Assembly: GCF_032191835.1 (NCBI RefSeq)
Contig: NC_083243.1
Coordinates: 54,560,001-54,624,000 of the forward strand
Direction of reading: 5' to 3'
Length of the DNA: 64,000 nt
Source: Heteronotia binoei
Taxonomy: Eukaryota
Shown: in pieces, positions 9,829 to 62,564 of the stretch
Layout: every line of letters starts with the position of its first letter
How positions within the stretch are numbered: position 1 is the stretch's first letter
The notes under the pieces: model-generated
Database searches by the model: none
Told to the model about the DNA's origin: nothing
The model's input: the letters and a program-made list of their open reading frames with translations, nothing else
Translations under genes and position numbers: made by a program

Positions 9829-11102
9829 TCAACGCCTTTTGTCTTTCCTGTCTGATTTACGGTCTCTTTCACTCCGTGAAGTTCTTTTGCCTGACCGACT
9901 ACTTTCTGATATAGACCTCTTCCTGTCGGACCTTGAGGTTTTATCCTTTGATCCTTTTGCATCTCTGTTGCTACCTTTTGAAGATTTGTGACTTCTATCT
10001 ACTCCTGAATTATCCCTTCGCTTCCGATCCAAACTCCTCCTCCGCTTTCTATCTCTATTATGCCCACGCCCTCTGCTCCGACTCCTGCTCTCACTGCTAC
10101 TAGAACTGCTGCTACTTTCTCGACTGCTACTTCCACTAGTGCTACTGCTGCTGCTAGAGCTGCTCCGACTACTACTGGTGCCACTGCTAGAACTGCTGCC
10201 ACTACTACTACTTGTAGAACTAGTACTGCTGGTGCTACTGCTGGTGCTCCGACTTCGACTCTTGCTAGTTTTGTTCCTTGCTCTGCCTCTGCTCCTGCTT
10301 CTAATCTTGTGCTTGACTTCTGCGCTTCCTGCCTGCACCTGGTCTGCCTGAATCTCAGGCAGCTTCTCAAACACTGCAGTTTCTTCTTTGACTACCTGAG
10401 GATCTTGATCTTGAGTGGATTCAAATAATAGTGGAGGCTGTGGCCAAAGCACAGACTCTGGCTGAAGCTGGGTCTCAGCCTCCTCTATAGGAGTGGATTC
10501 AGGATCCTTTTCTTCTGTCTCCTCTGCTTCAGCATCAGCTTCTGGCTTGCTGACTTCCTCTTTCTCCAAGGAAATAACAGGACATTCCTGGTCTGGCAGA
10601 GCACTACACTCCATTTCTGGTTCAATCTCTTTGCTATTCTCATTTTCTAGTGGTTCTGCATTATCTGTCTCAGCTTCCACCACATCCTGCTCACCATCTA
10701 TTGGCAGACAGTTTTCACCTTCCTCTTTCAACAACACAACATTCTCATGTTGATTATCCTGCTGCCTGTTCTCTTTAACCTCATCTACCTCTTCTACTTT
10801 AACCTCTACTTCCTCTTTCTGTTCTTCCTCCTCCTGCTCTAGCTCCCCATCACTATGACTAGCACCTACCTCCTTTTCCTCCCCTACCTCTTCCATTTCT
10901 ATATCATTGCTCTGATTACCTGTCTCCATCTCTTCCACCTGCTGAACCACCTTACCCTCTTCCTGCTCCTTGTTCTGGTCTTCCTTCTTTTCTTCCTTCT
11001 GCACCTCCTGATGTTCTTTTTCCTTCATAGACTGTCGCCTGGGCCTGGCTTCCATTTTGTTAATTTGCTCTGCAAATTCAATGCGCCTACTTTCAAACAG
11101 TG
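9829..11102 (-). CDS. PNN: PNN exon 9 (last coding exon)
   Basis: Acceptor ttttcag|CA CTG TTT; [24 protein letters not shown]...DKRR; TGA at 9831-9829. Confidence 0.97.
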
Positions 11103-14100
11103 CTGAAAAAAAAAGAGGACACATAGTAAGCTTAACAAGGAGGGTTAAGTTTAGTTTCTTCAGATCTGTTTTGTGAAACAGGCTCTTGTTTTGGAGAAAC
11201 TGGTGCTGCTGATACCTGAATGTTTCTATGCAAAACAGTTTACCAAGAGGAACAGGAAAGAATGTTAGAAAAGGGAGAAACATCATTAAGAACTTGTGTC
11301 AAGAGCAATAATTCAACAGAATTTGAAATGAAACATTCTGGACCACCTCACATCCTACATCAATCATTCTTTTCACTATTTCTTGCCATCTGACTATCAA
11401 GGCTGGCCCTGACACTAAGCAAACTAGGCAATTGCCTAGGGCACCAAACTGGGTGCTCCCCATGTGACTTGGTGACATTATCAGTGCAGGGGGGACAAGA
11501 AATTAGCCTTGCCTAGGGTGTCAGAGAGTCTAGGGCTCACCCTGCTGACTACTGGAATGTTGTGAATGTTTTAACTGGTTTTATTTTGTTATTTTATTGA
11601 ATTTGTACATCGTCCAGATCCCTGCCTGTGGCAGAGATTAGACAATTCATAAATATAATAAATACTGAAGATACTACACATTATTATAAGCAAAGACGAT
11701 GTCTGTTTTCCCCCACATATACTTGCCACAGGAACCTATAGCTGCAAACATGGATTATAGGGCCTAACTACAGACTGTTTTCCCTGGGGAATATCACCGG
11801 GTTGGACCACAGAGATATTCTGGGAACTCTGTTCTTCCCAGGTGGGAGAGCCTTTGGATTTGGATCTAGACTGTAGCATACTGGGAGATGAGGCTTAGAT
11901 CTCCCTGCTGTGATATTTTTCAGACGTAAAAGGGTCCAATGGAGTCTGCAAGCATATTGATGAGCAACAACACATTATGTTTTCACAACAGGACAAATAA
12001 TGCCCCATCCTCCCAAAGCCATGGTTCTGATCTGAACTGGAACTAGCATACCTGGCAAGCATGGAGCTTCAGAACACACCTCTCCACATGATCTGGGGGG
12101 AAGTGTACTGCATAGTTAGGCCCTTACTTGTTGGCAATAAATGTTTCAAACTACAAATGATGATGCATGCAGATAAGACTATATCTACATAATTCAACAC
12201 ACTACTATCATGCCGACAGCACTGAGTTTTATGAAAGAAATGCTGAATTTAAAAGCCAGCACAAAAATACACACATACCGTTTAACTTTTTCTGAGAGTC
12301 ATCAAACTGCTTCTGTGTTGCAGGACACATTTTGCCAGGGATGAAGAACAGGTGAGGCTTTGTCTTTGTTCTTATGTATTTTATTATTTTGGCATTATGT
12401 TCATTCCATTCCTCTTGCTGGTAAACAAAAAAGCATATTCAGTTTCACTGATAATACACTGATAATACACTGTTGCTCTGCGCACATGCTTTGGATGCAG
12501 TGATCCTCCTTTTGACCCCAGCACTTATGAATTAAAAAAGAACCTTCCCTAAGCCTGGGACCCTTGAAAACTGCAGCTAGCTAGCACAGGCAACACAGAG
12601 CTAGTTGGACCAGAGGTTTAACTTGATAGAACACAGCTTTATAAATTCAGATGATCAATTCAAACTCACCAACTGAGCAAGTTCAACTTTTTGTTCCAAA
12701 AGCCGCAGCTCTGTTTGTTTTGCACGTCTTTCTTCAAAAAGTTCTCGCCTCTCATTTTCAACTTGCTTTCTCTCTTCTTCTGCTTGCACTTCAAGTTTCT
12801 GTTCAATTTCTTGTCGCCTTTTTTGCTGCAGAAGAGAAAATGGTTTTATATTTGCTCAGCAACATCAAATTTAAATAGGATTATCACAGAAGATTTAATT
12901 TTAGTTTCTAAAGTTTCATTTTGACCCTGTAATTCTAGATTAAGATTAAAATCTTACTCTCCATCTCACATCTAAAACTGCAATCCTAAACACACTTAGA
13001 TCAGATCCAATGATAATTCAACCCAAAGTTTTTTCCTCAACCTAAATGGAGGAAAAACTTTCCGATTTTGCTAAGTGAAACTATCCCACTGCTTCTAGTA
13101 GGTAGGCACAATTGGTTTCTTGTTCTACAAAGGTAAAGTGCATATAGTCCCAGCAAGAAAGGTTTACAGGGGAAGAAATACCAGGTTTTGTATTGCTTCT
13201 CCAGTTTTAAAAGTTTTCAAAGCAACTTTAAGCAGTTCAGAGCAGCATACGCAGAGCAACTCTCCACCCTGTGTTTTCTCCTCACAACAACACTCTGAGA
13301 TAGGTTAGGCTGAAAAAGTGTAACCTGTGCAAAGTAACCTGGCAAAGTTCATTTGCAAGTGAGACTATAAACCCATGTCTATCAGTTCTAAGCCATATTT
13401 AAAATAATGAGTTACATATTTAAAATCTCTTCCCATTTGCCTTTCTACTTGAAAATGACATTGTTGAAAAGACAACAGTACAACAGAAAACTACTGAGTC
13501 ACCAGATGCAAGAGTCTTTCCATGTGGGATACGAATTTCACTGTATAGAAGTATTACTAAATTCTCATCTAGTTAAAATGTGTAGGGACTGAAAATTGGT
13601 ACCCTCTCAGTAGCAACCGTAGATTCTTGTTTGAACTTCTGAAGAGTACCCATCAACAGGCCAAATATACGCCGATTCCTAATAGAATATAGAAAAGAGA
13701 CAAGTATGATTACTCCAGACACTTAGAGACAGTGGCACAACACCATTTTCAAAGCTTTCCAAAGCAGCTAATAATCGGGATTATAAAACAAGGCAACAGA
13801 GCATTATTATTTTTTTTTAATTGCCACATTTTAAAAGCAGTAAAAGATAAAATGGGGGGACAGTATTGAAATGATCTCATGGAAAAATTTACATAAAGTC
13901 ACAGTAAAATTACGTTTCACTGACAGAGAGCAGAGATACTTAACCTTATGGAATACAAGAGGCAGACTTCAAGCCACACTTATCAAAACTAGAGTGTTAA
14001 TATTTTTGCCAGTACTTGTTTTGGCTCACATAAACAGTGTAAATGACACTAGTTGTTCGAACTTACACCTCCTTAGTCTTTGCATGAAATACACTTCATG

Positions 14101-27000: not shown

Positions 27001-30000
27001 GAAGACGGATATGTTACCTAAAGGTTGTTCTTTCTCATGTTCTAATTTTCTATGTACTGGAAGAGTTTTTTTTAAAGTGTATTGGTAGCATTCAAACATG
27101 AGATCCCATCTTATTTGGCAAGAACTGAACCTCATGTTTCTTCCTGATCATATAGCTGCATTCTTTCTTCAGAGCAATGTGTGTGGAGTTGTATTCCAGT
27201 TATTTGGGTGCTTTCAAAGAAAACAGGTATTATATTGCAAGACTAGTACTTATATCCCAGTTGTTAGACTTACAACATTGAACAGCAAAGTAAGCATGTA
27301 AAATAATAGAATAGAAAAGTACAGGGAAGAATTACATGCAATGAAAAATACAATTCTGAATCAACTTGCCAACAATTTATGGGAGATTGTTTAACTGCAG
27401 GATAAATATGAAACAAAGATGGGTTAAAATCTCTTTACATAACCCATGTTATGTAAATGCATTATATCCAAAATGGTAATGATTGTACAATTTTTTTGCC
27501 TGAACTGCATAAAAATTTTATTAGTAATAAAATGAAGTTTAACAATTCTGAAGATGGTCTGTTTTGAATGGTCAGGGGCACACATAGTTTGACAGAGCAT
27601 GCACGTACAGACATGTTGAACTGGTCTAGCAAAATGAGTATACAGAATCTTTGTATACTCAGTTCCTCCATCCAACTAGGGATGTGTTCCAAATGCATAT
27701 GATTTCTAGCTGGATTGGAATATTAGAATACCTTTCTCTTGTGAGTAGTCCTGTCTTCTGTCTAAAATGGAGATAATTATTCATTTCTGCAGGGCATCTA
27801 TGTACTCCAGGATAACAAATTCCGTCTCCTGACTCAGATGTCTGCTGGTAAACAGTATTTGGAACATGCACCTAAGGTATGTATTGCATCATAGCCTATA
27901 TAGGTTAGTAGATTCAAAACTAGAATTATTTACTGAGTTGAATCTTCAGTTCTATTAAGATTTTTTAAATGTATTGAGTCTGGTGTGTGTGGGGGGGCAC
28001 AATGTCTGCACTGACTTGAATGCATTTGTGTCTATAGATCTGTGGAGGCTGCCACAAAAATGGTGCCCCCCTCCCAATATATAACGAACAGGGCTTTTTT
28101 TGAACAGGAACACACAGGAACTCAGTTCTGGCTGGCTTGGCATCGGGGGGTGTGGCGTAATATGCAAATGAGTTCCTGCTGAGCTTTTTCTACAAAAAAG
28201 CCCTGATAATGAACAATAATGAATGCCTGCAGAGGGTTCTTCTCAAAACTGGAAAGGGCAGACCTAGTCTTGTTACAGTTTTTTTTAAAAAAGATATTAT
28301 TAAAAAGATATCTTTGAATAGAAATAAGCTAACAGTAATGGTTCAAAATGATTTGCATATCCACATGCACGCCATGTGGAAATAGTTTATTGCAAGCTAG
28401 GCAGATAAATATCAGAAGTATACTTTATGTAGCTTATCTTTGAGGGGGTAAACAAACATGTGGACAAAGGAGACCCGATAGATGTTGTTTACCTTGACTT
28501 CCAGAAAGCTTTTGATAAAGTTCCTCATCAAAGGCTCCTTAGAAAGCTTGAGAGTCATGGAGTAAAAGGACAGGTCCTCTTGTGGATCAAAAACTGGCTG
28601 AATAATAGGAAGCAGAGAGTGAATATAAATGGGCAGTCTTCGCAGTGGAGGACAGTAAGCAGTGGGGTGCTGCAGGGCTCGGTACTGGGTCCCATGCTCT
28701 TTAACTTGTTCATAAATGATTTAAGAGTTGGGAGTGAGCAGTTGAAGTGGCCAAGTTTGTGGATAACACTAAATTGTTCAGGTTGGTGAGAACCAGAGAG
28801 GATTGTGAGGAACTCCAAAGGGATCTGTTGAGGCTGGGTAAGTGGGCGTCAACGTGGCAGATGCGGTTCAGTGTGGCCAAGTGCAAAGTAATGCACATTG
28901 GGGCCAAGAATCCCAGCTACAAATACAAGTTGATGGGGTGTGAACTGGCAGAGACTGACCAAGAGAGAGATCTTGGGGTCGTGGTAGATAACTCACTGAA
29001 AATGTCAAGACAGTGTGCGTTTGCAATAAAAAAGGCCAACGCCATGCTGGGAATTATTAGGAAGGGAATTGAAAACAAATCAGCCAGTATCATAATGCCC
29101 CTGTATAAATCGATGGTGTGGTCTCATTTGGAGTACTGTGTGCAGTTCTGGTCGCCGCACCTCAAAAAGGATATTATAGCATTGGAGAAAGTCCAGAAAA
29201 GGGCAACTAGAATGATTAAAGGGCTGGAACACTTTCCCTATGAAGAAAGGTTGAAACGCTTGGGACTCTTTAGCTTGGAGAAACATCGACTGCGGGGTGA
29301 CATGATAGAGGTTTACAAGATAATGCATGGTATGGAGAAAGTAGAGAAAGAAGTACTTTTCTCCCTTTCTCACAATACAAGAACTCGTGGGCATTCGATG
29401 AAATTGCTGAGCAGACAGGTTAAAACGGATAAAAGGAAGTACTTCTTCACCCAAAGGGTGATTAACATGTGGAATTCACTGCCACAGGAGGTGGTGGCGG
29501 CCACAAGCATAGCCACCTTCAAGAGGGGTTTAGATAAAAATATAGAGCAGAGGTCCATCAGTGGCTATTAGCCACAGTGTGTGTGTATATATAAAATTTT
29601 TTGCCACTGTGTGACACAGAGTGTTGGACTGGATGGGCCATTGGCCTGATCCAACATGGCTTCTCTTATGTTCTTATCCTATTTGATATGACTGGGTTCA
29701 TATCTTTGTTTGCCTGGTAGTGTTGATAAGACTGATTTGCTCACTGGCCCTCTGTCTGCACTTATGTGTGTGACAAGGCTATTATGTGATTCAATCTACA
29801 ATTTTGGAGCTAGCATATATATATATAACAGACCTGATCTGTCCTGACCTCAATAGGTTTAAAAAAAAGACCTGTTTAGCCATTTTTCTTTTTGAATTAT
29901 TACATTTCAGTATTTGGCATTCACTTGTGGATTGATCAGAGGTGCTTTATCAAATTTGGGAATAAAGAGTATTGTGACAGCGGAAGTTTCAGCAATGCCT

Positions 30001-32480
30001 GCATGTAAGTTCACTTTGTATTTGAGGGAAAAATTGGTATATATAACTGTAATTAAAAGAAAATTGTTGCTCAGTGCATTTTTTAAAACTAGAGATGTGG
30101 GATTTTGTAGCCCAGAACTATTCCTGCCCCACTTCCAATTCCCCCAACTGAGGCCAATGATTGTCAGGAGCTGTAAAACTGTTGCTCTTAAAAGAGTGTT
30201 ATAAGGAATACTGACGAAAGCAATCAAGGCTGGATTAAGATCTACTTGAGGCAGTGATCTATGTCTAGAAGCCTTCCCCTCCCAAGTAATTTGTTTGTAT
30301 TTAAAGGCCCCTTATAAGGCCCTTAACTGTAGCTTACTTATTTTGTGCATCAATCTAGCTTTGAAAGTGATGAATTCCAGAGTGGAAAGTAGTGCTTATG
30401 TTGTTTTGGATTTCCAGTTCAGCTCTACAAGGTTAAAAGGACTAGACTTTGCCCTAGGTCCCCAGACATTTAAAAAAACCAATACACAGATCTCATCTGA
30501 GCCAAGTTTAATGTGGCTGTAGTTCTGGACTGCTGGAGAGGCTGCTGAGGTTTCTTTGCCCTCACAGATCAGAGACTTTATGCACTGTATTATTGTCAAG
30601 TGCTGTATTTTCCATTGTAATATCCTGAAACCTGAAGCCTCTCTTTTACTTTTGATTGACACAGGACTATAAACTTGTACTATTTATGCCAGTTTTGTAA
30701 CCTTAAAAAAGAAATGGGGCATTTAAATCTGCATTTCAGATTGTTATATTTAAAACTTTATTTAGATATATTTATGCTCTATTGCAAGGAAGGTAACAGC
30801 AGACCACTTCTGATTATCTCTTGCATCAAAAGCCCCACATATAATGCCCCCTATGCATCCCTGCACAGGGCACACTGGATAAAAGATTTCTTTTATCATT
30901 TTTCACCCCCAATTTTCTCCATGTACAAGTGCCAGCCATATCTGATCTAGGAGTAAGTCAGAGTGTGACCTGGATCTGTACAATAAAAAGTAGAACCAAA
31001 CAAAATGGTTCCTGGCAGCCAAGCACAAATCTGAGTTTCTGTTTTGGGAGGTGGTTTTGGGGTGATTGTCAGGCTAATAATGCCTCCCCCCCATTTAAAA
31101 CAAAGATGCATTTCTCTCTTTAATGGAGCCCACAGGAAAAGATTTTCCTCCTGTTGCAAAACCCAATACCTGGTCCCCCCCCCCCCTTTCCTGATCCAGT
31201 CACCCTAATTAATGGGCCACTCACACAGCTGGGTAGCCTTTTCTCACCATCAATCTAGGATCATCAGCAAACATTAGCATTCTTACTTTCTTGGCCAGAT
31301 TGCGTCAAGACATGGTAGCAGTTCCTGTTTATATCCAGAAACCCAGCCCCATACATAGATGCAAATATTACATCTTTCGTCTTTTTCTGGGAACCCCATT
31401 CAGCATTTCCCAGCAATTGTTCTGCTCCCAGCTAATCCCATAAGGGCATTGTTTTAGTGGGCAATTACATCAACATCCTCCCAGGAGACAGTTTTGCCTA
31501 TATCTGGACTAGGACCTCCCCATTGTGGGTGTGTCTTGTCTTTGGAGCAAACTGGCATAACATCCCCAGATACATTTGGGTCTTTCTGTGAGACACTGGT
31601 CTGTTTCACATCCTTTCTCCATGGATTCTGCACTACTGAACAGGTAGTTATCACCCCTTTGAAACCCCTCCTAAAATCCCTCTCACACCTGTATTTTGGT
31701 GTGTTTGTTTTTCTGTGTGCATTTATCCTCTGTATGTGTGCATTAATTTATTATTTTTTCTTAATAAAACAATCTCTTTTGGTTACGTAGATCACTGGTT
31801 ATTCTTGAATATTCTCTAAGGGAAAAATCCCCATAAACTCTGGTGGAGAATTTCACTAGTTACCTCCCTCTTGCAAGCATATCTCTTGCTAATTCCCCAA
31901 CTAAATAAGAGATGACCTAATTTTACCAATCTGTAGCATCTGAGGTAACACATGGACCTGGGTTCGCTTTGAGTTGGTTACAACTTGACAGCACACTATT
32001 ATTATTATACTCAATTTTTGTCCCTGTGGGGACCCTAAGGAGTTTACAACACTTTCCTGCTTCCATTTTATCTTCATAGCAATCCTGTGAGGTACTTTAG
32101 GTTGAGAGGGAGTGACAAGTCCAAGGTCACCCAGTGAGTTTCCATTGCAAAGTTGAGATTTGAACATGGGTGTCCCAAATCCTAGTCTGACATTCTAATT
32201 ACCAGCAATGTAGTTTGAAGCAGAGTTACACCCTTTTAAGCTTGTTGACTTCAGTAGACCTAGAAGGGTATAGCTCTGCTTTGAGTTGTGGAAGATGTAA
32301 CCTACTCAGATTTAGTTAAGTATGGCTGTATGCATTGTACAAGATAATAGTATAGACTTAGGCAATTGTATTTTTGAACTAGGGAAATAGTTGCTTCAGC
32401 TAATTAAGGTAGATATTTTATAAACTCCTTCTGTTTTATTTTTGGCAGGTAAATTTCAGGTGATGATACAGAAGATTTAG
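23977..32480 (+). CDS. TRAPPC6B: Trafficking protein particle complex subunit 6B, complete 6-exon CDS
   Basis: Exons 23992(or 23977)-24072, 25189-25256, 26649-26766, 27793-27876, 29911-30004, 32449-32480; 477 nt from 23992. Protein [17 protein letters not shown]...[27 protein letters not shown]...KFQVMIQKI*. All junctions GT-AG. Confidence 0.97.
25189..25256 (+). CDS. TRAPPC6B: TRAPPC6B exon 2
   Basis: [23 protein letters not shown]; AG/GT flanks. Confidence 0.95.
26649..26766 (+). CDS. TRAPPC6B: TRAPPC6B exon 3
   Basis: [39 protein letters not shown]; AG/GT flanks. Confidence 0.95.
27793..27876 (+). CDS. TRAPPC6B: TRAPPC6B exon 4
   Basis: [28 protein letters not shown]; AG/GT flanks. Confidence 0.95.
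28089..28205. mobile_element. hAT-type MITE
   Basis: TIR CAGGGCTTTTTT/AAAAAAGCCCTG; 8-bp TSD ATAACGAA/ATAATGAA. Confidence 0.85.
28438..29676 (+). mobile_element. 5'-truncated CR1 LINE in TRAPPC6B intron 4
   Basis: RT motifs [31 protein letters not shown] and C-terminal [11 protein letters not shown]; one frameshift; tail TTCTCTTATGTTCTTA. Confidence 0.95.
29911..30004 (+). CDS. TRAPPC6B: TRAPPC6B exon 5
   Basis: [31 protein letters not shown]; AG/GT flanks. Confidence 0.95.
32449..32480 (+). CDS. TRAPPC6B: TRAPPC6B exon 6 (last coding exon)
   Basis: (C)KFQVMIQKI followed by TAG. Confidence 0.92.
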
Positions 32481-33170
32481 AAAATGTATAGAAGAAAACA
32501 CCTGCCCTGTAATATCTTGAAATTGTATATTTTATTTATAATTGCAGTTTAATGCAGAGGTCCTGTGTCTATGTGAAACATCTGTTTTGCCAAACATAAC
32601 ATGAAAGTTATGACTGTTGTAGATTTTTAGTAATGTCCTATACCTGCAAGTATGTAAAGATAGTGGATTCCTGATTAAATACTAAGTTTAAATATCTGAT
32701 TTGTTGTTTTGGCCTAGCAGTGCAGCATTTATTGAGGGCCTTATAAACAGGCAAACGCTCTGAGCTAATAGCTGACCACATTCTGAAGTTCTGTGAAGTT
32801 GCTGAAGCACCCAGGTTCTTCTAAGTCCTGCTTTATTCATACAGAATTTTCTGAAGAACTATGTATTCCATGTTTGTGCGCAATGCAATTATTCCAGACC
32901 TTCTGAGTTAAAAAAAAAAAAAGGATAAAATTCTTTGTGACTTTCTTATAAAGATAAATGGCACTACAGCCTCACTGCCTTTAGCAATGCACAACAATTT
33001 GTATATATTTAATCTTGTTATGTTATAAATTGACTAATATACTTTGTCTTGAAAAGCTAGAGCAGGCTGTTATCTGTATATACTGAAAAATTATTACTGA
33101 AATGAGGCCTAATATCCCCTTTAATGGTCTGTGAATGCTTTTCTTTATCATGGAGTGTGTGTGGGAGGGC

Positions 33171-33523
33171 TGTTGGTCTTCCGCGTTTAGTGAGAGAGGT
33201 TTCTGAAGACGCAAAGGAATCAAGTCTTGTACACAGCTGCGATTAGACTAGCTATATACATTTATTTACAACTATAATACAGACTAGCAAAATGCTCCGC
33301 ACACAATTCACCATCCAACCTCCAACAAGTAGCAGAGTACTACTGTACATTTATACATGTCCTCTAGGTAAGTGACCAATCAGGTTCAGTACTGAGTCAT
33401 GGTCACATCACTCTGGCTGATGCAATCTGGCCGACTTCCAGATGCCCCTGTCAGCCAGATCATCTAATGTCAATTAGATCCTTTGCTGTCAGCAGTGGTC
33501 TGTCGCCTGCACATACACTGACA
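33171..33523 (-). repeat. Copia 3' LTR (353 bp)
   Basis: Differs from 38261-38604 by 6 substitutions and 2 indels (7 and 2 nt). On the element strand, TATAAA near 33350-33355 and AATAAA at 33266-33261. Confidence 0.95.
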
Positions 33524-33891
33524 CCCCTCCTCAGGTGCAGATCACTAGTTTCAGCATATTCCTTAGTGTTACAAACTTTTCCACAGTGACATTTTTAGTG
33601 AACACGTCAGCAACATTACATTCAGATTTACAATGTGTCAGCGTTACCAGTTCTTTATTTACTGCCTCTCTGACATTCTGATAACGTATGTTGATATGCT
33701 TACTTCTGCATTTTATTCCCTTTGCCATTGCTAAATGTTGAGCTGCTGTGCTATCGCAGTGCATTTCTACAGGTGTTGGTTCTGGTAACTTCAGATCTTT
33801 CATTAATTGTGTTAACCATTCTAGTTGTATAATGGTGTCACTGATTGCCGAGTATTCTGCTTCACAGCTGCTCATGGCAATGTGAGTTTTA

Positions 33892-34113
33892 TTTTTTTAT
33901 TTTTTTTTCCCCAGAAAAAGTTTTTATTAAGAAACAAGTACAAACAAACACAAATACAATCGACCCCACAAACTTGCCAAATACACTCCCAAGCACCTCG
34001 TACATGATACATTCCAAAAATCACAATACTTTCTAAACAGATCTATGTGAGGTACAACAGGATACAACCATACCACCTACTACAACCACCCACCATACAC
34101 ACAGGGAGATGAA
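33892..34113 (-). mobile_element. Polyadenylated retroposed fragment nested in Copia RNase H (L1-type insertion)
   Basis: 222 bp GT-rich insert with AATAAA and an A-rich tail on the minus strand, flanked by 8-bp direct repeats GAGTTTTA (33884-33891, 34114-34121); it splits LISWR.../THIAMSSCEAEY. Confidence 0.75.
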
Positions 34114-37100
34114 GAGTTTTAGTACTCTCCAGCTTATTAGTGCACCATACATGAACACTGCACTACCTGAGGTGGACCTTCCGTCTGGTCTTTCCCCCCA
34201 GCTGGAATCACTGTATGCCACCAGGACTTGATACTCATTACTAATTTATGATCCATTGTACCCTTCAGGTACCTGAGTACTCTTTTGGCAGCTATCCAAT
34301 CCTTCTGCTTCGGTTCTGCACAGTGCTGGCTTAACAGGTGGACTGCCATACAGATGTTGGGTCTAGTCCAACAAGCTAAATATAGCAATGACCCAACTAA
34401 GGACTGGTATACTTATTTTCTAGTAAAGCGTCATCTTCCTCTTTTGCATAACCAGTAGTCATGGGGCTCTAAACTACTTTGGCTTCAGTCATTCCATATA
34501 TCTCTAATAGTTTCAGTATTTTTCCTTTTTGGCTTACTTGATAGTGCCCTTCTGTATTCTTGGTAATTTCCATCCCAAGGTAATGTATTTCCCCCAAATA
34601 CTTGATTTTAAATAGTGTTTGTGTTTCCTCCATAAACCATTCCAGCTGTTTATTGTTGTTACAAAGGAGGCACAAATCATCCACATGAAATAATATATAG
34701 CATTCCTGCCCATGTACCTTGTGGCTAAACAGACATGGATCTGCCACACTTTGCTTAAACCCTAAGCCCTCGAGTGCTGTACTCAGGCACTCGTTCCATT
34801 CATGGGCTGCCTGTCGAAGGCCATACAATGCTCTATTTATTTTAAGTACAGGCATATTTACTTTTATTGGGGAACCCGGGGATTGGCTGCAGGTCAAGTT
34901 CCTCTTTTATGGTGGTGTTAAGGTATGCTGTGGTCACATCAAAATGATGTACTGCCATGCCGCTGATATCAGCCTTACATAGTGTTGCTTTTAGTGTTTC
35001 AAGCCTGACCGTGGGGGCAAAACATTCATCAAAGTCCCTTCCTTCTAGTTGGGTAAATCCTCTTGCCACTAGCCTAGCTTTTTTCTGAAGCGTCCCATCT
35101 GTAAGCCGTTTAAGCTTATACAGCCAATTACATTTTTCCCAGCCGGCAGCTCTGCAGGTGTAAATACGTTATTTTCAGTTAGTGAGTAGAACTCTTTCTG
35201 CATAGCTTGCGGCCAGCCAGCACGCTCTTTATCGTTTAGAACTAACACGTCCTTGTAGCATTGTGGCTCTGTTGCATGCACATAATTTATAGCTGTGTCA
35301 AACCCATACCTCTTCGGAGGCACTCCCTTATTTATTCTGGTTGACACTCTCATTTCAGGCTGAGTGCTCTGTGAACCATCAGAGCTTTCATGTTTTACAT
35401 CCTCTGAACTGTCAGAGCTTTTGAGTTCTCTGCCGCTCCTCTGTTGAGGAAGTCTCTTGTCTAATATTCACATGCCTCTCCTCACTCTGCTGAGACACCG
35501 GTAACTCTACACCACTGGGCAATTCATTTGCATGTACCCTGCTCCAACTTTCATCTTCACAGAATGAGGCAGACCTGCTAAATCGCAGCATATTATGCTC
35601 ATCTGCGAATCTGTATGCCATCATTCCATTTTGGTATCCCAAGAATAACAATTTCCTTGCTCTGGCACCCCCTTTTCGTCTTTTATCTAATGGTACATTG
35701 ACCCAAGCCTTGGAGCCAAAGATTCTAAGGAAATCTAAGCATGGTTTCTTCCCATACAGCACCCTGTATGGAATGTCATTTATTGCTTGAGTCCATAACC
35801 TGTTTATTATAAAGCACGCTGTCTTCAGTGCTTCTCTCCAGTAAGTTATTTTTAGCTCGCTATCCTTCAACATAGCGTGAAGCATTGTCTGAAGTACTCC
35901 CCCTTTTCTCTCTCACCCCATTTTCTGCTGGGGCAGAAACATTAGCAATCCTGTGATGAATTTCCTGGTCTCTGAGCCAGGAGGCAAATTGTTTTTCTAC
36001 AAAGTCTCCCCTCATATCCATCTGCAAAGCACTTATCTTGCATTTTAACTGCCTTTGCACACGATTAGCCCAGTATCTGAATGTTGAACACACTTCTGAC
36101 TTTTGTTTCATGGCATACACCCAAGTAAAACGACTGTGGTCATCAACCAAGATTAAAGCATATTTGTTTTTAGATACACTGGGGGCATAAGGGCCGATCA
36201 CATTGGCATGAATTAGCTGTAGGGGCCTCTCAGAGACTGTTGCTTACTTTGGCCACCGGGTAGGCCTTAGATTTTGCCTGCTTACACACATTACAATCAA
36301 GATAAGCACTGCAGGACTCGACCTTTTCACCTTGTAGAACGGCCAGGGTCTTATTAATAGTGTTGTAACTAGCATGCCCCAGCCTTCTATGCAACCTATG
36401 AATACATTTGTGATGAGGCTGCTTGTTGCATACAACTTGTGCTTTCACTCCTTTCTGATCCAGCACGTACACATTGTCTCTCAATACACCTCTGGCCAAT
36501 AGTTTACATGCCTTAAATATTTTACAGCTACTTACATCAAAGGATACAGTAAAGCCTGCCTTTGCCAATGCTGAGACACTTAGTAGGCTTGTCTCTAGAT
36601 TAGGTACACAAAGCACGTTCACAAATTTGTGCTTTAGTTCAGAAAAGTACACAGTTCCTTGGCAGAGGACCTCAGCCTTTCTGCCATCAGCTAGACTCAC
36701 GAACCAAAGACTTGCAGGCTCAGTGTCCTCTAGCAGTCTCTCCTCGCAGCAGAACATCTGGGTGGCCCCGGAGTCAATAATCCACGGTGCTCTCTGCAGA
36801 CCCGAGTCAGTCCTCACCAGTGTCGCTTGCTGGTTCTGCGAAGACTTCTGCTTGCCTCGCCGTAGCTCAGGTCAACTCCTTTTCAGATGTTTTTCGCTGC
36901 CACAAAAGAAACATTTTCTCTTTACTTGCAACACTCTCTCTTTCGGTGACTGCTGCCAGCTGGAGGCACCTCCCATACTCTCAGCTCTGGCTTCTGCTGG
37001 CTTTGACGAGCGTGGGCTTTCTGCTCTCTGCACTCTTGCTGCCTTTGGTCTTCTGTCAGGAGCTTCCCAGTTATGTAGCTTAAAGTAAGTTTATCAGCGT

Positions 37101-37328
37101 CCTGGCCCTCGAATGCCAACAACAACATATCAAATCTCTCGTGCAGAGAGATCAGGATTATATACACCTTTTCTTCCGGAATTGTTTTACCTTGCTGTTC
37201 TAGCTCTTGGAAGCATGCAGATAAGCTGTTGAGATGGTCTCTCACCATCTCCCCGGCCAGCATTGTCTTCCGATACAGCTTGTCAGTGCTATCAGCGAGC
37301 CAGCTGTTGTCTGCACATAGATGGCCTT

Positions 37329-37851
37329 AAGAACATAAGAGAAGCCATGTTGGATCAGGCCAACGGCCCATCAAGTCCAACACTCTGTGTCACACAGTGG
37401 CAAAAAATTTTATATACACACATACACTGTGGCTAATAGCCACTGATGGACCTGTGCTCCATATTTTTATCTAAACTCTTCTTGAAGGTTTTTATCTAAA
37501 CTCTTCTTGAAGGCTATACTTGTGGCCGCCACCACCTCCTGTGGCAGTGAATTCCACATGTTAATCACCCTTTGGGTGAAGAAGTACTTCCTTTTATCTG
37601 TTTTAACCTGTCTGCTCAGCAATTTCATCGAATGCCCACGAGTTCTTGTATTGTGAGAAAGGGAGAAAAGTACTTCTTTCTCTACTTTCTCCATCTCATG
37701 CATTATCTTGTAAACCTCTATCATGTCCCCCCGCAGTCGACGTTTCTCCAAGCTAAAGAGTCCCAAGTGTTTCAACCTTTCTTCATAGGGAAAGTGCTCC
37801 AGCCCTTTAATCATTCTAGTTGCCCTTCTCTGGACTTTCTCCAATGCTTGA
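37329..37851 (-). mobile_element. 5'-truncated CR1 LINE nested in Copia gag
   Basis: ORF2 C-terminus [17 protein letters not shown]..., tail TTCTCTTATGTTCTTA, 5-bp flanking repeat GCCTT (37324-37328, 37852-37856), internal 25-bp tandem duplication at 37464-37513. Confidence 0.93.
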
Positions 37852-38228
37852 GCCTTGAGTGCATCCCAGGCTTCCTTCGCCTGCTGTTTTCCTCCTACGT
37901 GCACCAACTGATCATCCGATATACTTAGTATTATGGTTGCGAGAGCCTGGTCCCGGATGGCATCTTCAGGTGTGGGGTCCGCAGAAGGAGCTGATACACA
38001 GTTCCACAGCCCCCCTCGCTTAAGAAAATGTTCTATACGCAACGCCTACACGTTGTAGTTAGTAGGAGTCAGCTTATCTATCAGCACCATAGCCGCCGCT
38101 CTAGCCATCCTGCTTAGCACCTGCGTCTCAGCTACTGCTGTCCTCCTCCACTGAGGCAGCTTTCTCCTCACTTCTGAAGCACTTCTGCGTCTTTCTCCAA
38201 CACACACCTCCTCTACTCACGGCACTCA

Positions 38229-38260
38229 GGCGCAGCGGAAGCGTGCTGGGCCCATAACCC
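38229..38260 (-). other. Primer-binding site complementary to the 5' half of initiator tRNA-Met (32 nt)
   Basis: Plus strand GGCGCAGCGGAAGCGTGCTGGGCCCATAACCC equals vertebrate tRNAiMet nt 9-40 (sequential numbering) and abuts the LTR. Confidence 0.93.
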
Positions 38261-38604
38261 TGTTGGTCTTCCGTGTTTAGTGAGAGAGGTTTCTGAAGAC
38301 GCAAAGGAATCCAGTCTTGTACACAGCTGCGATTAGACTAGCTATATACATTTATTTACAACTATAATACAGACTAGCAAAATGCTCCGCACACAATTCA
38401 CCATCCAACCTCCAACAAGCAGCAGAGTACTACTGTACATTTATACATGTCCTCGTGACCAATCAGGTTTAGTGCTGAGTCATGGTCACATCACTCTGGC
38501 TGATGCAATCTGGCCGACTTCCAGATGCCCCTGTCAGCCAGATCATCTAATGTCAATTAGATCCTTTGCTGTCAGCAGTGGTCTGTCACCTGCATACACT
38601 GACA
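38261..38604 (-). repeat. Copia 5' LTR (344 bp)
   Basis: Direct repeat of 33171-33523, immediately followed by the PBS on the element strand. Confidence 0.95.
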
Positions 38605-40150
38605 GGGGCAAAACTGTGCATCCGTTGCAAATGTATCGGATGTTTCAAGCTACATGCTTCAGGGACAAGGGCTCACTTCAGATGCAATGAGGGGATCCAC
38701 ATATTGCACCTGAATAAGTGAAATCTAGTTCTTGGCAGCATATGCTGTGATAAAACTTTAGTTGGTTTTTAGAGGCTACAATATTCTCTGTTTTATTTTT
38801 GCTGCTGGAGACTAACACAGCTTTCTCAAACCAGATTATGGCTGCATAATCTATAGTTTTCCAAGGTTATTTACCTAGAATTATTTCCATCATCAGGGTC
38901 TCAGTTTATATACTTCTCTAGAGCAGCACTTCCATGCAGAGGTTGTGTAAGCAGTTTTACCCTATACTGTGATTCTTCTGACCCACCATTCAAAGAAATC
39001 TAGTTGAAGAACACTTTGCTTTCCAATTCTTTGATTCCAACCTTTCAGCAGTTCTAGTTAAAGCAGGAGACACTGAACTGCCCTATATCACAATGCTGCT
39101 TCAATAAAGTTATTTCTTCCAAGTTCGTTTGGGGACTCCTATTTATACAGCCCTCTTCCATGGCTGCAAATGCTCTTGCAGCTACATTTGAATACTATGC
39201 AATGCATGCTGTAGTTACTCTGTATTTTTTTCTGATAGTTCTGTGACCATTAAGGAACAGCATTCATCCACATAAATCTGTGGCTGGAAAGCTCTGTCAT
39301 GCGTCTTGCAATCTCACCAATCTATATGCAGACTCCTAGTTTGTTGCTAGCCTTCGATCAACTTCAGCTCACACTCATTACTTTTTCACTTTTTTCTAGC
39401 TAACAGAACAGTAATATCTTGTGGGCCTTCTCTGTGAAGATATTTGCATACTTTCTTCCTATTAACAAGAACATCCTAGCTGTCTTCAAAACCTAATGGG
39501 AGCTACTTGCTGAAAGAAGAAAATTTTGTGTATAAACCTAAACAGTTGCTTGGAACACAATCTAGTCAAGTGCACAGGACAGATATGGCCAGATGCTGCT
39601 GGGTCTGCTGTAGCAGATAAATATTTGAATTTTAGTTTTCCTTAATTCTGTAGGCTTAGGGTATTACAGACTATGACATTAAAACAGAAAATAAGTATTC
39701 TGCTCAACAGGCTTCAGTGATCTAGATTCAGAGTTAGGAAGCCACAAATAAAACAACTGCAAATTTCTAACAAGCTGTTTTAGCATGATTCTGGTCATTC
39801 TCTGTCACCATTTCAAATGTAGGGATTAGTACGGGAATTCAGAGAAACAAAACTCTGGATTTTTTGAAATCAGGGAGTTGAACTAATAATGATTTTGTTT
39901 TACTGTATCCACTGATTAAAGTGGTTAATTTGATTTTATAACTATAGCAACATTAATTAGGGAGGTAGGGGAGGGTTAGAAATTTAGACAGTTTGAAACA
40001 AACCTGAATACAATTAATAAACTTTGGAAGACTAGAATCCATGTGGGTTGACCAGCTCATGTTATGAACTATAGTAATTTAGAACAGCATGGACCAATAC
40101 AAAACAGACCTCAAAATGCTCACATTTACAATTCAAGACTTTAAAAAAAC

Positions 40151-40598: not shown

Positions 40599-43500
40599 CT
40601 GGAGGGGGGAATAAAAGTAATGAAAACAAATAATTGAGAGGGGGCTTTACATCTAAGACTGAATATGCTAGAGATGCAACTAGTTCCTTCCTTCAACTGA
40701 GCAATGGTGCATTAAGGAAGGGACAAAATTACAATATATTTGACTGTCTTCAATAAAAATAGGGAAATTCAGGACTAGACAGAAGGCCAGAAAGCCTGAG
40801 TAGAAGCTGAGCATACAGGTGGTTATACTAAGCACAGAATTAAAGCAAAAAGACCTTACATAGGCAATATAAGAGTTTCTAACATGTGAAGGAAAAAAGT
40901 GAATTCTATAGTAATTAAATTCTATGGTGAGATTCTCCTGCCCAATTTACAGTACACTCTTGCTCAGAGATCAAAATACATGATCTCTAATGCAAGAGGA
41001 AGGATGCTCAAGTGTCACTGCTACTGCTGATTTATTGGTACATGATGCCTATAGTGGCCTTCCCAAACTCATCCATGTCACCTTGGATCACAGGCTGCTA
41101 ATGACTGAATTCTGTATTTTAAAACTTCAGTTACTGAGCAAACAGTCAAATCAAGGGCCCAAGCCAATTCTGCTAGACAGGTATACTTGTGGTGCTTGGA
41201 ATACAAAGCTAAAGTTTCCAGCAGGTTACTGAGGAAAACAGCAACTCTGAACAGCGCACGTTGGGTGATTACAGACCGGCAGTTTGGGCCAACTAAGAGA
41301 TGCCTCTGAAATCAACCCAAAAAATCCTTCCACACACAAACGCCTGCTGCCCTTCCTTGTCCCGTATTCACCCCTGTCCTCCGCAGTGCGACTGAAAAAG
41401 CTACCACTTCCAAAGTGGGAGCAAATTTTTGAGCTGCACGCCAGTTGCCTCTTTGGCGCCTGGAAGTGGAAGGGTGCAAGCGAGGCACCTTGGCAGTGTG
41501 AAACCGCCAAGCTGCCCCAAGTCGCATCAGTTTTTAAAATTAAAACTTTCAGTGTGCATGAGCGCATTTATGCACGCACATGCACATGACTACTGAAAAT
41601 GTATGGGGACAGGAATGGTGTGCAATGGCCATCTGAACATGCCCATGTTGCCCCATGGACAGGATGGGGACGGCTTGTGGGGGAGCATGTGGAGGCTTCG
41701 GGATGGCTCTTTTTGAGCCATTGCAATTTGGGACACCTCCCATCTGCCCCAAAATGCCTGTTTGTTATCAGCCGTTGTTTCCTTAAATAGCCAACTCAAC
41801 AGAAACAGTATCTCTCATACCTGCCAACTAAACAAATTAACAAGTTCAGAGCAGATACTCTTTCTTCATTCTTGTTCTCCTACAACAGAGTAAAGCAGAA
41901 TTAATTCAGCACATGCCTGAAGTTTAGGAAATGTCAACATTCACAATTCTGGACAAATCTGGCAAACATCCAAAACCCCAAATATAAGCTAGTAAACAAC
42001 AACAGTCACTTAAACATGATAGTATTCAAGGTGCATAAAATGGTGAAATTGATACATTTAACATTCTGTGAATGTCAATCAGAGATCATGGTGAGTACTC
42101 AGCATGCTTTTTGTTAGGTTCTGAACTGTCATTCTAAGACGGTATAATGAAAAACACAAAAAATTAACACAAGCCAGATAACTGAATGGAATGACACCCA
42201 TACACTAGAAAATATTTTCTAAATAATTTTAATTTAATAATTTGCTAAGCTTACCTCCAAGACTCTCACTTCAGAACATCTTCTGGCCAACTGCCGAATC
42301 AGGGAGTGAGCCTCTGGTAACAACGGCTTTTCAAGACAGGCCAGCAGAGCATAAAGCCATCTGCCCTGCAGGAATTTAATGGAAGGTGCATCCTGAAAGT
42401 AATGTTTCACTACTGGTACTTTATCCAAGCAAAGTGGGGAAAAGCCAACTCTGGAAAAACATACACCCATGAATGTACTGATCCCAATAACATTACTTTA
42501 ACAGGTCTACAAATTAACCAGCCTGAATAAAAATGATTGTTTTGTAAGTCTATGTCAAATAGATATGCCTGGCATTGTGTACTGGTTAAAATACTAGACG
42601 GATCTGGGAGAGCCAAATTCAAATCCCCACTCTGCATGGAAGCTTGCTGGGTGACCTTGGCCCAGTCACTGAACCTAAACTGTCTCACAGAGTTGTGAAG
42701 ATAAAATGGAAGGGAAGGGACACAATGCTGAAAGCTGCTTTAGGTCCCCACTGGGGAGAAAAGCAGGATATAAACATCTAAAAAAATAAGTCTAATTTAG
42801 CCTGTTAACATGTATCTATCCAGGCAAACTGGGTTGTGCTCAAGGTTTTTAAAGAGCAGACATAGAGCATGCAAATTCCATCTTCATAACTGTTGTGTTA
42901 ACACTAAATTATTTATGTTTCATTTTTGGAGTGTACAGTATTTACAAAGGTTTCTATAAGTTCAGGCAATCATTCTATCTGTAGAGAAAGACCATTCCTT
43001 CTTAAAGGATAAACCAACCCAGGATGCAGAAAACAACAGATCCAGAGAAGCATATTGCTGACAAATGGCATGTCAGCAGGGCCATATAATAGTGGCAAAG
43101 TTCTAATAATGCTTAAGCTGGCATATCACTAAAAGGGACCCCCTGGCTGGCCAAATGTGCATCTGAGCCCCACACTATGGTTGGAAGGGCTGTAATACAG
43201 CAATCTTACTGTCTGGGTCTACTCAGTGCCCGTAACTCTATGATTGTCTCCTGTTCCATGACGGAAGAATGGATAAGGCAGGGATGTAGTAACAAAACCT
43301 GTGTTCTAAATATTTCTAACTTTCCTTCAGCGAAACTTCAAGAGAAACAGTTTCCTCCTCTGCTTTTCAAAAGGAACAAAAGTAAAAGTTACCAGTTCTG
43401 AAGTAAATTCCTTCTCTGCAAACCAGTTTATCAGATATTCCAAGACACTGGTTACTGTTGCCTTTTAAGAAGGAAGAAAAGCAGATATTAAAAACAACAC

Positions 43501-46500
43501 TTTGTATGGTGCCTCCTTATAGTCTTTGCATTGCATTACCAAATAAGATCTATACTTGTACCTCATGTTTCATGAAACACTAGGTATAATCCAGCAACCA
43601 GATGTTTAAATAACTGGCAACTATGGCTTAAGTTCAAATGCAAAGCCCCCATGTGATGCCAATGCAACTTCATATTTTGTGATGCTATGAGATAGCAGCT
43701 GGCAGAGTCTGCCCTAAACATTTTTCCCTACTGTTCCACAAACTGGAGGATCAAACTATAAGTGACAAATATTCTTATATGCATAATGCGAACAAATGTA
43801 CAAATTTGGGTTAACTTATAATTACACTGTGGGTCCAGGTATGCTATAACTTTCAGCAAGCTATCTGTATGATGCTGTTTCGTTTGATAAGAATCATCAT
43901 GCATTCACTGGACACACTGGGAGGGAGAGTGAGCCTGCTGGCTTTACCCCCTGCTTCTGTGCAACTTCCTGATCATCTGCAGGGGCAGCTGTGCCAAGGA
44001 AGTGGCCTTGTGAACTCTCCTTCCCCACTGATCAGGATGGAGAGTTGGAGCAGTTGCTCCTGCAAACAACCAGGGGGGCTGCTGTCACATGCACCAGGCT
44101 ACCCTTATGGAAGGATGTCTAAATAAGTAACAACACAGCTACAAAGAATTCACCACCAATCCCATTTAAGAAAGATAGTAGCAGATACCTGATTCATTCT
44201 GCTAACAATGCTCAGCAATGGAGGAAAGCCAACCTGGAGTGGGGAAGCCATCAGAATATGTAAGAAACAAAAGTACTTATAGGAAATCTAAATGAATGCA
44301 AATGTGCAAGCTATCAACTTTTATCAAAGATTTCAGGTTTTCACGGCTGGTAACATCATTAGGGTTTGTAGAATCTTTCGGGATCAAGTGCTGTGTTCTA
44401 CTGGAGAAAGTTTTCCTTCCAGGTGTTTCGTTCTCAGCTGCGGAGAACATCCTCAGTGGCGTTGCAGCCGGAGCAGGCGCTCAGACCTTCTTGGCTGCTG
44501 TGCATTGAGTGGGGCCAGGGCTGCTGGAGAGCTGCTATTTGTAGGCTGGAGGGGGTGTGATGAAAGGGCAATTGGTTTGTGGATGTTCCCATTGTTTGGT
44601 GGGGCTTCCTGGAAGGGTAGTGATAAGGAAACTGGCTGTTGAATGTGACCTGTGTTAATTGCTGGGAAGGTTGGAAGGGGTTTGAAGATAAGGAAGATGG
44701 TTGTTGACTGTGCTGATTGTTCTGTGGAATTTGCTGGTTGTTCTGAGACTTTCTGCAATTTATAGTCTGTAGGGTGTTTTGCAGAGCTGGGTACCAAGAT
44801 TGGTGGATGAAAATGCCTTCTTCCTTTCTGTTAAAATTGTGCTGGTGTTTGTAAATCTCAATAGCTTCTCTGTTCAGGCGGGTATGATAATGTGAGACCG
44901 TAGAAAGGACTTCAGTTCTTTCAAAGTGGATGACGTGGTCTCCTTCTTGAAGTGCATGTTCAGCTACAGCTGATTTTTCTGGCTGAAACAAGCGACAGTG
45001 TCTCTTGTGTTCGGTGAGACGGGTGTTGATACTGCGTTGGGTACTGCCAATGTAGACTGCACCACAGGAGCAGGGTATTTTGTAGACTCCAGGGGTTGAA
45101 AGTGGATCTCTCATATCTGTCACCGACCGCATTGGCAAAATTCTCAAATGCCATAATGTTGACACAGTCTTCAAGCCCACACAACAGATCTGCCACATGC
45201 TGCGCTCGGCCAAAGATATGAGAGATCCACTTCAAGAAGGAGACCACGTCATCCACTTTGAAAGAACAGAAAGGAAGAAGGCATTTTCATCCACCAATCA
45301 GCACAGTCAACAACCATCTTCCTTATCTTCAAACCTTCACACCCCCTCCAGCCTACAAATAGCAGCTCTCCAGCAGCCCTGGCCCCACTCAATGCACAGC
45401 AGCCGAGAAGGTCTGAGCGCCTGCTCCGGCTGCAACGCCACTGAGGATGTTCTCCGCAGCTGAGAACAAAACGTCTGGAAGGAAAACTTTCTCCAGTAGA
45501 ACACGGCACTTGATCCCGAAAGATTCTACAAACCCTAATATCAACTTTTAACTTTGTGCTTTCTACCTACCTGTACATAATCAATTCCTTGATTTTCATC
45601 ACAGGATACTTGAACACCTGTATTTAAATACAACTTTTCACCCAGACAAAACTTTTTCCAGCCTTCTTCGTCATCTGGTTTGGGCTGCAGAAATCAAGCA
45701 AACAAGTTTATTTTCCCTATTTTAATAAAACAAAAATATTGTACCTCCCCAAGATCACACACAAATGTTAATTCTACATTTTTAGTTTATAATAAAGAAC
45801 TAACCTGTTGTCTATCTCTACTCAATGAGAAGAGAAAAAGAATGGTGCCCCAAAAGATACTCACCATTGTAACGTTACTGTCCAAATGCTGGGATTTCCA
45901 GTGGTCCCTGTGTTTGTTCACACTCTGGAAAATTGAAAAAGTAAAATCTCATAAGAACTTTTTCACTACAGTTGCAGTGTTTAGTCCAGTTATTCAGATC
46001 AACTGATCAAAAGTTATTCAGATCAACTTCTGACCAACTGAAAAGATGCCCCCAATTATTCAAGCAGATATTTAATAACTGATTTTTTTTAAAAAAAGTA
46101 CTGATACAAGTTGCAGATGCGAAACAACAGCTGAGAAGAGGCATTTCCTTCACTCTCATACACAAAGACTGCTTGTAATATAGATGAACTACCTAAAAAA
46201 ATACATGTATTACCTAAAAACAAAATCAAGCCTTTTTCTTTAGAGCTGTTTTTACTCAGATGCAAATTTATAAAGATTTAATGAACTGCCTAATTTCATC
46301 AACAGCAAATGATGGGTGTCAGCCTGCATCCTATACTTCCTTTGGATTTGCACACCTCTTTGATCTCTTTTGAGGCAGTGCTCTATTGCATAGTGCACTT
46401 CCACTCAGCTACACTGCCTTTTCTGGAGCCAAGAAGTGGCTAGCACAAGAGGAATATGCTCTGCAGTGGAGGACTGCCTCTGCAGATGATGGAGAGGACC

Positions 46501-56626: not shown

Positions 56627-62564
<5,938 letters not shown>

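Follow-up and report, generated by a model that had tools for sequence, protein, structure and literature searches.

The window, a stretch of 64,000 nucleotides of Heteronotia binoei DNA, contains a Ty1/copia element whose primer-binding site (PBS) is complementary to 32 consecutive nucleotides of the initiator tRNA-Met (tRNA-iMet) of its host, and a long site of this kind was found over a whole clade of families. The reading that we favor, at a probability of about two in three, is that this clade primes reverse transcription from the 5' half of tRNA-iMet, copies the primer into the plus strand and likely stalls at m1G9, so that the site would be rewritten in each round. Judged from sequence, a retrovirus-like function of the PBS is likely in this Ty1/copia element with half-tRNA priming.

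The element in the window and its primer-binding site

A decayed Ty1/copia element was found on the minus strand at window positions 33171-38604 (Table 1). Its LTRs, with TG..CA ends, are identical at 338 of 344 aligned bases (98.3%), and it is flanked by a 5-bp target duplication. The LTRs, the target duplication, the polypurine tract and the copia-type order of gag and reverse transcriptase (RVT_2) place the element in Ty1/copia. The full domain order of gag, protease-like domain, integrase and RVT_2 is that of copia, with seven of ten pieces matched by Pfam, and no Pfam match at E 0.01 was found for the piece at the place of RNase H. Stop codons, frame changes and two insertions disrupt the open reading frames. 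The insertion in gag is absent from two relatives of the family (L029 and L330) and has 92.5% identity to a second repeat at window positions 29178-29676; we take both to be the 3' end of a CR1-like LINE. The second interruption (33890-34125), in the end of pol, has an A-rich tail and no further copy within the window.

Table 1. Features of the Ty1/copia element, in positions of the window
Feature	Position	Strand	Remark
Target-site duplication, upstream copy	38605..38609	-	GCCCC on minus strand
5' LTR, 344 nt, TG...CA	38261..38604	-	
PBS, 32 nt, exact complement of host tRNA-iMet linear nt 9-40	38229..38260	-	
PBS core, nt 26-40	38246-38260	-	
PBS extension, nt 9-25	38229-38245	-	
gag, first piece	37860..38045	-	copia-type gag PF14223
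Insertion of ~520 nt interrupting gag	37331..37852	-	
gag, second piece	36979..37326	-	PF14223
Protease-like beta-barrel PF22936 and gag-pre-integrase PF13976	36233..36871	-	PF13976 under its curated cut-off
Integrase core PF00665 and SH3-like PF25597	35415..36243	-	pieces in different frames
Reverse transcriptase, copia type PF07727	34472..35168	-	two frames, broken
End of pol, at RNase H place	33534..33896	-	identity inferred from position
Polypurine tract	33524..33532	-	
3' LTR, 353 nt	33171..33523	-	
Target-site duplication, downstream copy	33166..33170	-	GCCCT, one mismatch

Host exons flank the element at window positions 29896-30204 on the plus strand and at 9829-11298, about 42250-42370 and 60702-62564 on the minus strand. 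One of them belongs to a TRAPP subunit (PF04051), and the others presumably belong to pinin, GEMIN2 and a Pro/Ser-rich gene, which they resemble. A repeat at 44434-45463, which we take to be Penelope-like, gave a weak GIY-YIG-like match (PF10544, E 0.006, below the cut-off) and is adjoined by a partial duplicate.

On the plus strand, the 32 nucleotides of the site are identical to linear nt 9-40 of a tRNA-Met(CAT) gene of the same genome (L025, identified by ARAGORN); the element strand carries the complement, which begins directly after the terminal CA of the LTR at 38261. The base following the match mismatches T8 of the tRNA. An exact complement to nt 9-40 that fails at T8 had been described in a first-pass annotation from the sequence alone, and alignment to the host gene bears this out; the site is, however, not inside the 5' LTR, as had been stated there, but just outside it on the 3' side. 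Our tRNA numbering is linear, with linear 25 corresponding to standard position 26, in agreement with the G26 probe in the accessible part of PMC7293042. Four tRNA-iMet genes were found in the genome, identical over the 66 gene bases printed, and two of them (L233 and L234) are clustered with other tRNA genes, namely those for Leu, Ser and Lys and a further Met gene. The site pairs with the anticodon arm of tRNA-iMet and not with its 3' CCA end, as in half-tRNA-primed elements of the Hemivirus type. It holds no complement to nt 2-8, the usual seed of small RNAs. We also considered that the site might be a tRNA gene. An Rfam scan of 37900-38700 found no match to a tRNA model and ARAGORN found no tRNA gene in the whole window, so it is a tRNA fragment.

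Long sites in the genome and beyond

The exact 32-mer occurred 148 times genome-wide compared with no match for a reversed control pattern, and the chance expectation for a given 32-mer on both genome strands is ~3e-10. Among 30 of these loci that were fetched, 29 were LTR junctions belonging to several families and one was a tRNA gene. Because a 32-mer search selects long sites, we also searched with the 14-nt core joined to the TG of the LTR, which revealed 1810 LTR-PBS junctions in the genome. In a sample of 96 junctions from the first 100 listed, all of them on one contig (C1), 68 sites were long and 28 were short (14-16 nt). The long sites ended at nt 10 in 48 cases, at nt 9 in 18 and at nt 8 in 2. 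With the flank of the window family as an anchor, all 38 copies found carry the long site with G9; nine are exact and the rest are mostly changed at CpG. This anchor fixes nt 8, so that longer matches are invisible to the search. A second G9 family gave 202 matches, 100 of them listed. A one-off capture and scattered PBS ends, which the first-pass annotation had named as outcomes against its own proposal, are thus both contradicted, since every window-family copy found is long and the ends cluster at nt 8-10.

In a tree of gag, built from the 24 rows of 42 with a usable piece and without the metagenome rows, which are too distant to include, the long-site families were separate from the short-site families with a 2-nt spacer. 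A single row with a short site (L090) falls inside the long-site group, possibly through loss of the extension, and the long branch of the window row is an artefact of the insertion in gag. The gag pieces have diverged to 38-86% identity with that of the window while the long site stays exact. Three short-site rows (L051, L087 and L102) resemble indel-damaged long sites. In other short-site families (L048, L058, L072 and kin), two spacer nucleotides separate the LTR from a site that ends at linear nt 25-26. The long-site families of the genome carry a single additional base that matches the tRNA (nt 40) and lack any other spacer. We dropped the idea that an m2,2G26 block lies behind the short sites with ends at linear nt 25-26, because human m2G26 is only partial and long and short families occur in one host.

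Metagenome contigs were scanned with a pattern of nt 10-39 directly before TG, which cannot find shorter sites. This gave 12 stretches representing 10 distinct elements with sites of at least 30 nt, which start at nt 39. Copia-type Pfam domains lie near six of these elements; three have none and one has no frame to test. Measured against the H. binoei tRNA, which may differ from the hosts' own, six sites end at nt 10 and four at nt 8, and T is found at nt 16 in seven of the ten. The four elements with both T8 and G9 (L242, L239, L244 and L248) have T at nt 7 in common, three of them have C at nt 6, and in L242 nt 1-5 match as well; the match of these four to the tRNA of their own hosts may extend further, perhaps over the whole 5' half. 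Viral contigs contained no match to the long site. Its presence in ten metagenome elements shows that the site is not peculiar to one host; it is a recurrent Copia design rather than a lizard oddity.

Mismatched and tRNA-perfect sites in sister family A

The largest family, family A, has a 31-nt site (nt 10-40) with C at nt 9, and nt 21, 24 and 25 of its own PBS do not match the tRNA. Its youngest subfamily, A1, has a median pairwise identity of 99.5%, and 641 of its copies were classified genome-wide by nt 21-25. The own form CCGCC was found in 437 copies (68%) and the tRNA-perfect form GCGTG in 121 (19%). Partial forms account for 13%: 70 copies read GCGCC, with the tRNA base at nt 21 only, and 11 read GCGTC, with the tRNA base at nt 21 and 24. 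Two other forms were single copies. Background mutation is expected to yield ~0.2 copies per given single substitution. No A1 copy combined the own base at nt 21 with a changed nt 24 or 25.

The older sister subfamilies yielded 173 junctions, from which 77 unique loci were combined with eight A1 rows in an 85-row tree with the PBS left out. The tRNA-perfect form is present in 20 of the 77. The own alleles at nt 25 (CCGCA, CCGCT and CCGCC) follow the subfamily tree, needing 5 changes against a shuffled mean of 18.9, and none of 200 shuffles was as low. In contrast, the distinction between tRNA-perfect and own forms needs 20 changes (shuffled, 20.3), at least seven of them forced by starred branches, and a single clade for the 24 perfect rows was rejected (p-AU 1.6e-80). 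Perfect copies sit on nearly every rung of the tree and, in the 7-15 nt to either side of the site, mostly keep the bases of their own subfamily. Three linked changes that recur toward the tRNA, on many backgrounds and at a share independent of age, fit primer copying followed by heteroduplex resolution as in retroviruses. The mismatched PBS of family A thus appears to have given tRNA-form progeny repeatedly, which is inheritance of the retrovirus type. This agrees with the earlier proposal that reverse transcriptase copied tRNA sequence into the element, although the longer copy appears to be renewed in each round and not, as had been suggested, captured once and fixed.

If copies were instead made perfect by gene conversion once inserted, with tRNA genes or perfect-site families as the source, donors would be at hand in at least four tRNA-iMet genes and about 144 perfect element copies. 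However, the homology shared is only 31 nt, the perfect share has already reached its A1 level at ~1-2 private changes per 1.7 kb and is similar in the older subfamilies, and private differences are alike across PBS classes. The share therefore does not grow with age, and we regard such an origin as very improbable.

A second alternative, to which we give somewhat more weight while still holding it improbable, involves no copying of the tRNA. Perfect and mismatched alleles would both be long-lived among active copies and passed on through element RNA; template switching would shuffle them, and selection for extended primer docking would keep them. The flanking SNPs of A1 do recombine freely, with r2 near 0 beyond 200 nt, and for this reason a tree of A1 alone, built from 84 of 86 rows after two rearranged ones had been removed, told us little. 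In addition, the nested series GCGTG-GCGTC-GCGCC-CCGCC would equally be left by stepwise mutation, and Ty1 and Ty3 inherit their own PBS. However, on the tree the own alleles at nt 25 remain associated with their flanking sequence whereas the perfect alleles do not. Nor is PBS class linked to two SNPs in the leader, at distances of 74 and 167 nt (D' 0.13 and 0.04), though the nearer of these is in linkage with SNPs lying 93 and 298 nt beyond it (D' 0.64 and 0.85; Fisher p 0.037 and 0.0003, from small counts), and no class-specific flank bases adjoining the PBS were found between own and perfect copies.

The partial forms of A1 run one way, with 81 copies carrying the tRNA base at nt 21 and the element base at nt 25 (e.g., L031, L032, L181 and L182) and none the reverse. 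They are rarer in the sister subfamilies, where one of the three among the 77 loci has the opposite direction. Simple heteroduplex segregation does not predict one-way partial forms. Candidate explanations are a 5'-to-3' excision repair that spares an isolated C:C mismatch, and switching of reverse transcriptase between the plus-strand tRNA copy and element RNA. Misincorporation at G26 was rejected as the main cause of GCGTC, because perfect-site families show three non-G bases (C, A and T) compared with 11 that are all C in A1.

The family A lineage has stayed mismatched through successive subfamilies though a fifth to a quarter of copies are tRNA-perfect, and the lone possible perfect-derived cluster on its tree is small (L282, L274 and L306). 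Together these suggest that perfect copies seldom found lineages in family A; other families, unlike it, are perfect throughout. The predicted energy of the duplex with the tRNA changes from -74 to only about -66 kcal/mol with the mismatches. Folding of the U5-PBS-leader RNA of 21 copies gave family-specific U5/leader stems and no consistent difference between own and perfect copies. A more far-reaching reading, which we offer tentatively, is that m1G9 is the plus-strand stop of a 5'-half primer in a vertebrate Copia clade, that the 31-nt site is rewritten in each generation, and that the most successful family stays mismatched as tRNA-perfect copies are poorer parents. Under that reading, silencing by 5' tRNA halves or too tight binding would be candidate causes of the poorer parenthood, and the genome would record a mutation-selection balance between primer templating and host control by tRNA fragments.

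The end of the probable tRNA copy and comparison with known systems

The element and the tRNA are the same at nt 10-20, so copying is demonstrated only to nt 21, and the true end of the copied tract can lie anywhere from nt 20 to nt 10. The window family has no mismatch to revert, and copying is thus not visible there. According to the accessible part of PMC7293042, human tRNA-iMet is almost fully m1G9, m2G26 is only partial and m2,2G26 is lacking; the H. binoei gene matches the probes printed there. In retroviruses, plus-strand synthesis halts ahead of m1A58, and the small amount of read-through is served by an over-extension sequence (accessible part of PMC13191261). A strict stop just before m1G9 would make nt 10-40 (31 nt) the commonest form, which fits the 48 of 68 long junctions ending at nt 10 but does not account for the 18 that include G9, as the window family does, or the 2 that include T8. 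Regarding the earlier suggestion that the site ends at m1G9 itself, the clustering of ends at nt 8-10 speaks in its favor, but the retroviral analogy predicts a stop one base earlier.

Converted family A copies retain C at nt 9, in line with a stop just before m1G9: G9 was absent from all 60 A1 copies fetched that carry G21, the base of the tRNA. A genome-wide search for family A sites with a base other than C at nt 9 gave 10 matches, of which eight are C-to-T changes at CpG and two belong to another family. The absence of G9 in family A may instead reflect failed extension of a mismatched 3' end. One G9 family carries A at nt 8, and only two of its copies were found with another base there; both have the T of the tRNA and lie on different branches, a weak hint of rare read-through past G9.

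It is also conceivable that the tRNA is copied but that structure or selection sets the end at nt 8-10, since in a nicked tRNA the acceptor stem would keep nt 1-7 base-paired and pairing and copying could reach no further than nt 8. All seven element junctions of the genome with T8 indeed fail at G7, the first acceptor-stem base, the ends are spread over nt 10, 9 and 8, and the two changes at nt 8 just described would fit as well. However, the commonest end is nt 10, both in the genome and in the metagenome elements (6 of 10), family A converts never gain G9 or T8, and the match of L242 to nt 1-5 indicates that the acceptor stem may be reached by at least one element. We consider a structural end unlikely, though less so than the two alternatives above.

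In the favored reading of primer copying with a stop at m1G9, the primer would be tRNA-iMet cut near nt 39-40, by analogy with copia and Ty5. A point against this reading is that t6A37, near the primer end, must be read through. The copy statistics of family A strongly support transfer of tRNA sequence into the PBS as far as nt 21 or beyond. New insertions would consequently begin as a heteroduplex of tRNA copy and element copy, which would resolve to either form, about 19-30% becoming tRNA-perfect. Copying would stop just before m1G9, giving nt 10-40, and the tRNA-perfect form would have been fixed in the window family. G9 of the window family, one base past the strict stop, would be element-encoded or an extra base fixed after rare read-through, comparable to the retroviral over-extension sequence. 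If this is true, the retroviral rule that a modified base sets PBS length would hold for another modification and another family of retroelements. A countable read-out is available from hundreds of very young insertions, the reading predicts both the stop base and the host enzyme involved (TRMT10A), and the elements provide a natural setting in which to ask whether transposons are restrained by 5' tRNA halves.

Neither the place where the plus strand stops on a half-tRNA primer nor inheritance of such a primer is apparently described in the literature searched. Nothing was found there on a long or tRNA-inherited PBS of vertebrate Copia; most subscription papers lie outside that search, and Repbase or Dfam consensuses may show the site silently. 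The 19-nt site string had no occurrence in the papers listed by one of these searches, and a copia cryo-ET preprint makes no mention of tRNA. The long site was not found in the accessible supplements of PMC10886601, PMC11889832 and PMC6317226. Squamates have record Copia numbers, assigned to Mtanga (accessible part of PMC11889832), whose main text, as far as accessible, does not mention a PBS or tRNA; the H. binoei genome has 1810 core junctions, which may belong to this clade.

Half-tRNA priming has been known for decades, and the PBS of copia and Ty5 is 13-15 nt long. Priming by half tRNA-iMet is known for copia, Ty5, Osser, Bryco, Gymco-II, Bianca and rust-fungus Copia (accessible parts of PMC5371799, PMC6317226 and PMC10886601). 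Drosophila copia, yeast Ty5 and the plant and algal elements Osser, Bryco and Gymco-II are alike, in the same accessible parts, in having a PBS to the tRNA-iMet anticodon arm directly after the LTR. Short sites like those of copia and Ty5 also occur in the H. binoei genome (28 of 96 junctions). The long sites differ from that type in that complementarity continues through the D arm to nt 8-10 and that there is evidence of tRNA sequence written back into the site.

The site of Tca2/pCal of Candida albicans is reportedly near 32 nt in the primary papers, which may already discuss a long site. Tca2/pCal (gamma LTR) belongs to Ty1/copia and shows an extensive stretch of homology to the interior of a tRNA (accessible part of PMC4139406); the accessible part of PMC7175516 adds nothing further on this site. 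It is a fungal element and its tRNA is tRNA-Arg(UCU), whereas the site described here matches tRNA-iMet. The yeast elements Ty1 and Ty3 are likewise LTR retrotransposons primed by tRNA-iMet, with extra pairing between tRNA and element RNA beyond the core site. However, they use the tRNA's 3' end and are reported not to inherit primer sequence (accessible parts of PMC5371799 and PMC7472051), whereas family A appears to do so.

The retroviruses and related elements (HIV/SIV, MLV and mouse ETn/MusD) are similar in that the primer is copied up to a methylated base, a heteroduplex forms, mismatches revert and an over-extension sequence adjoins the PBS (accessible parts of PMC13191261, PMC4549124 and PMC7472051). 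Their PBS heteroduplexes segregate to either form (PMC4549124, same part). The retroviral PBS, however, comprises 18 nt of the tRNA 3' end and is bounded by m1A58, whereas the site described here comprises ~31 nt of the 5' half, presumably bounded by m1G9, in a Ty1/copia element.
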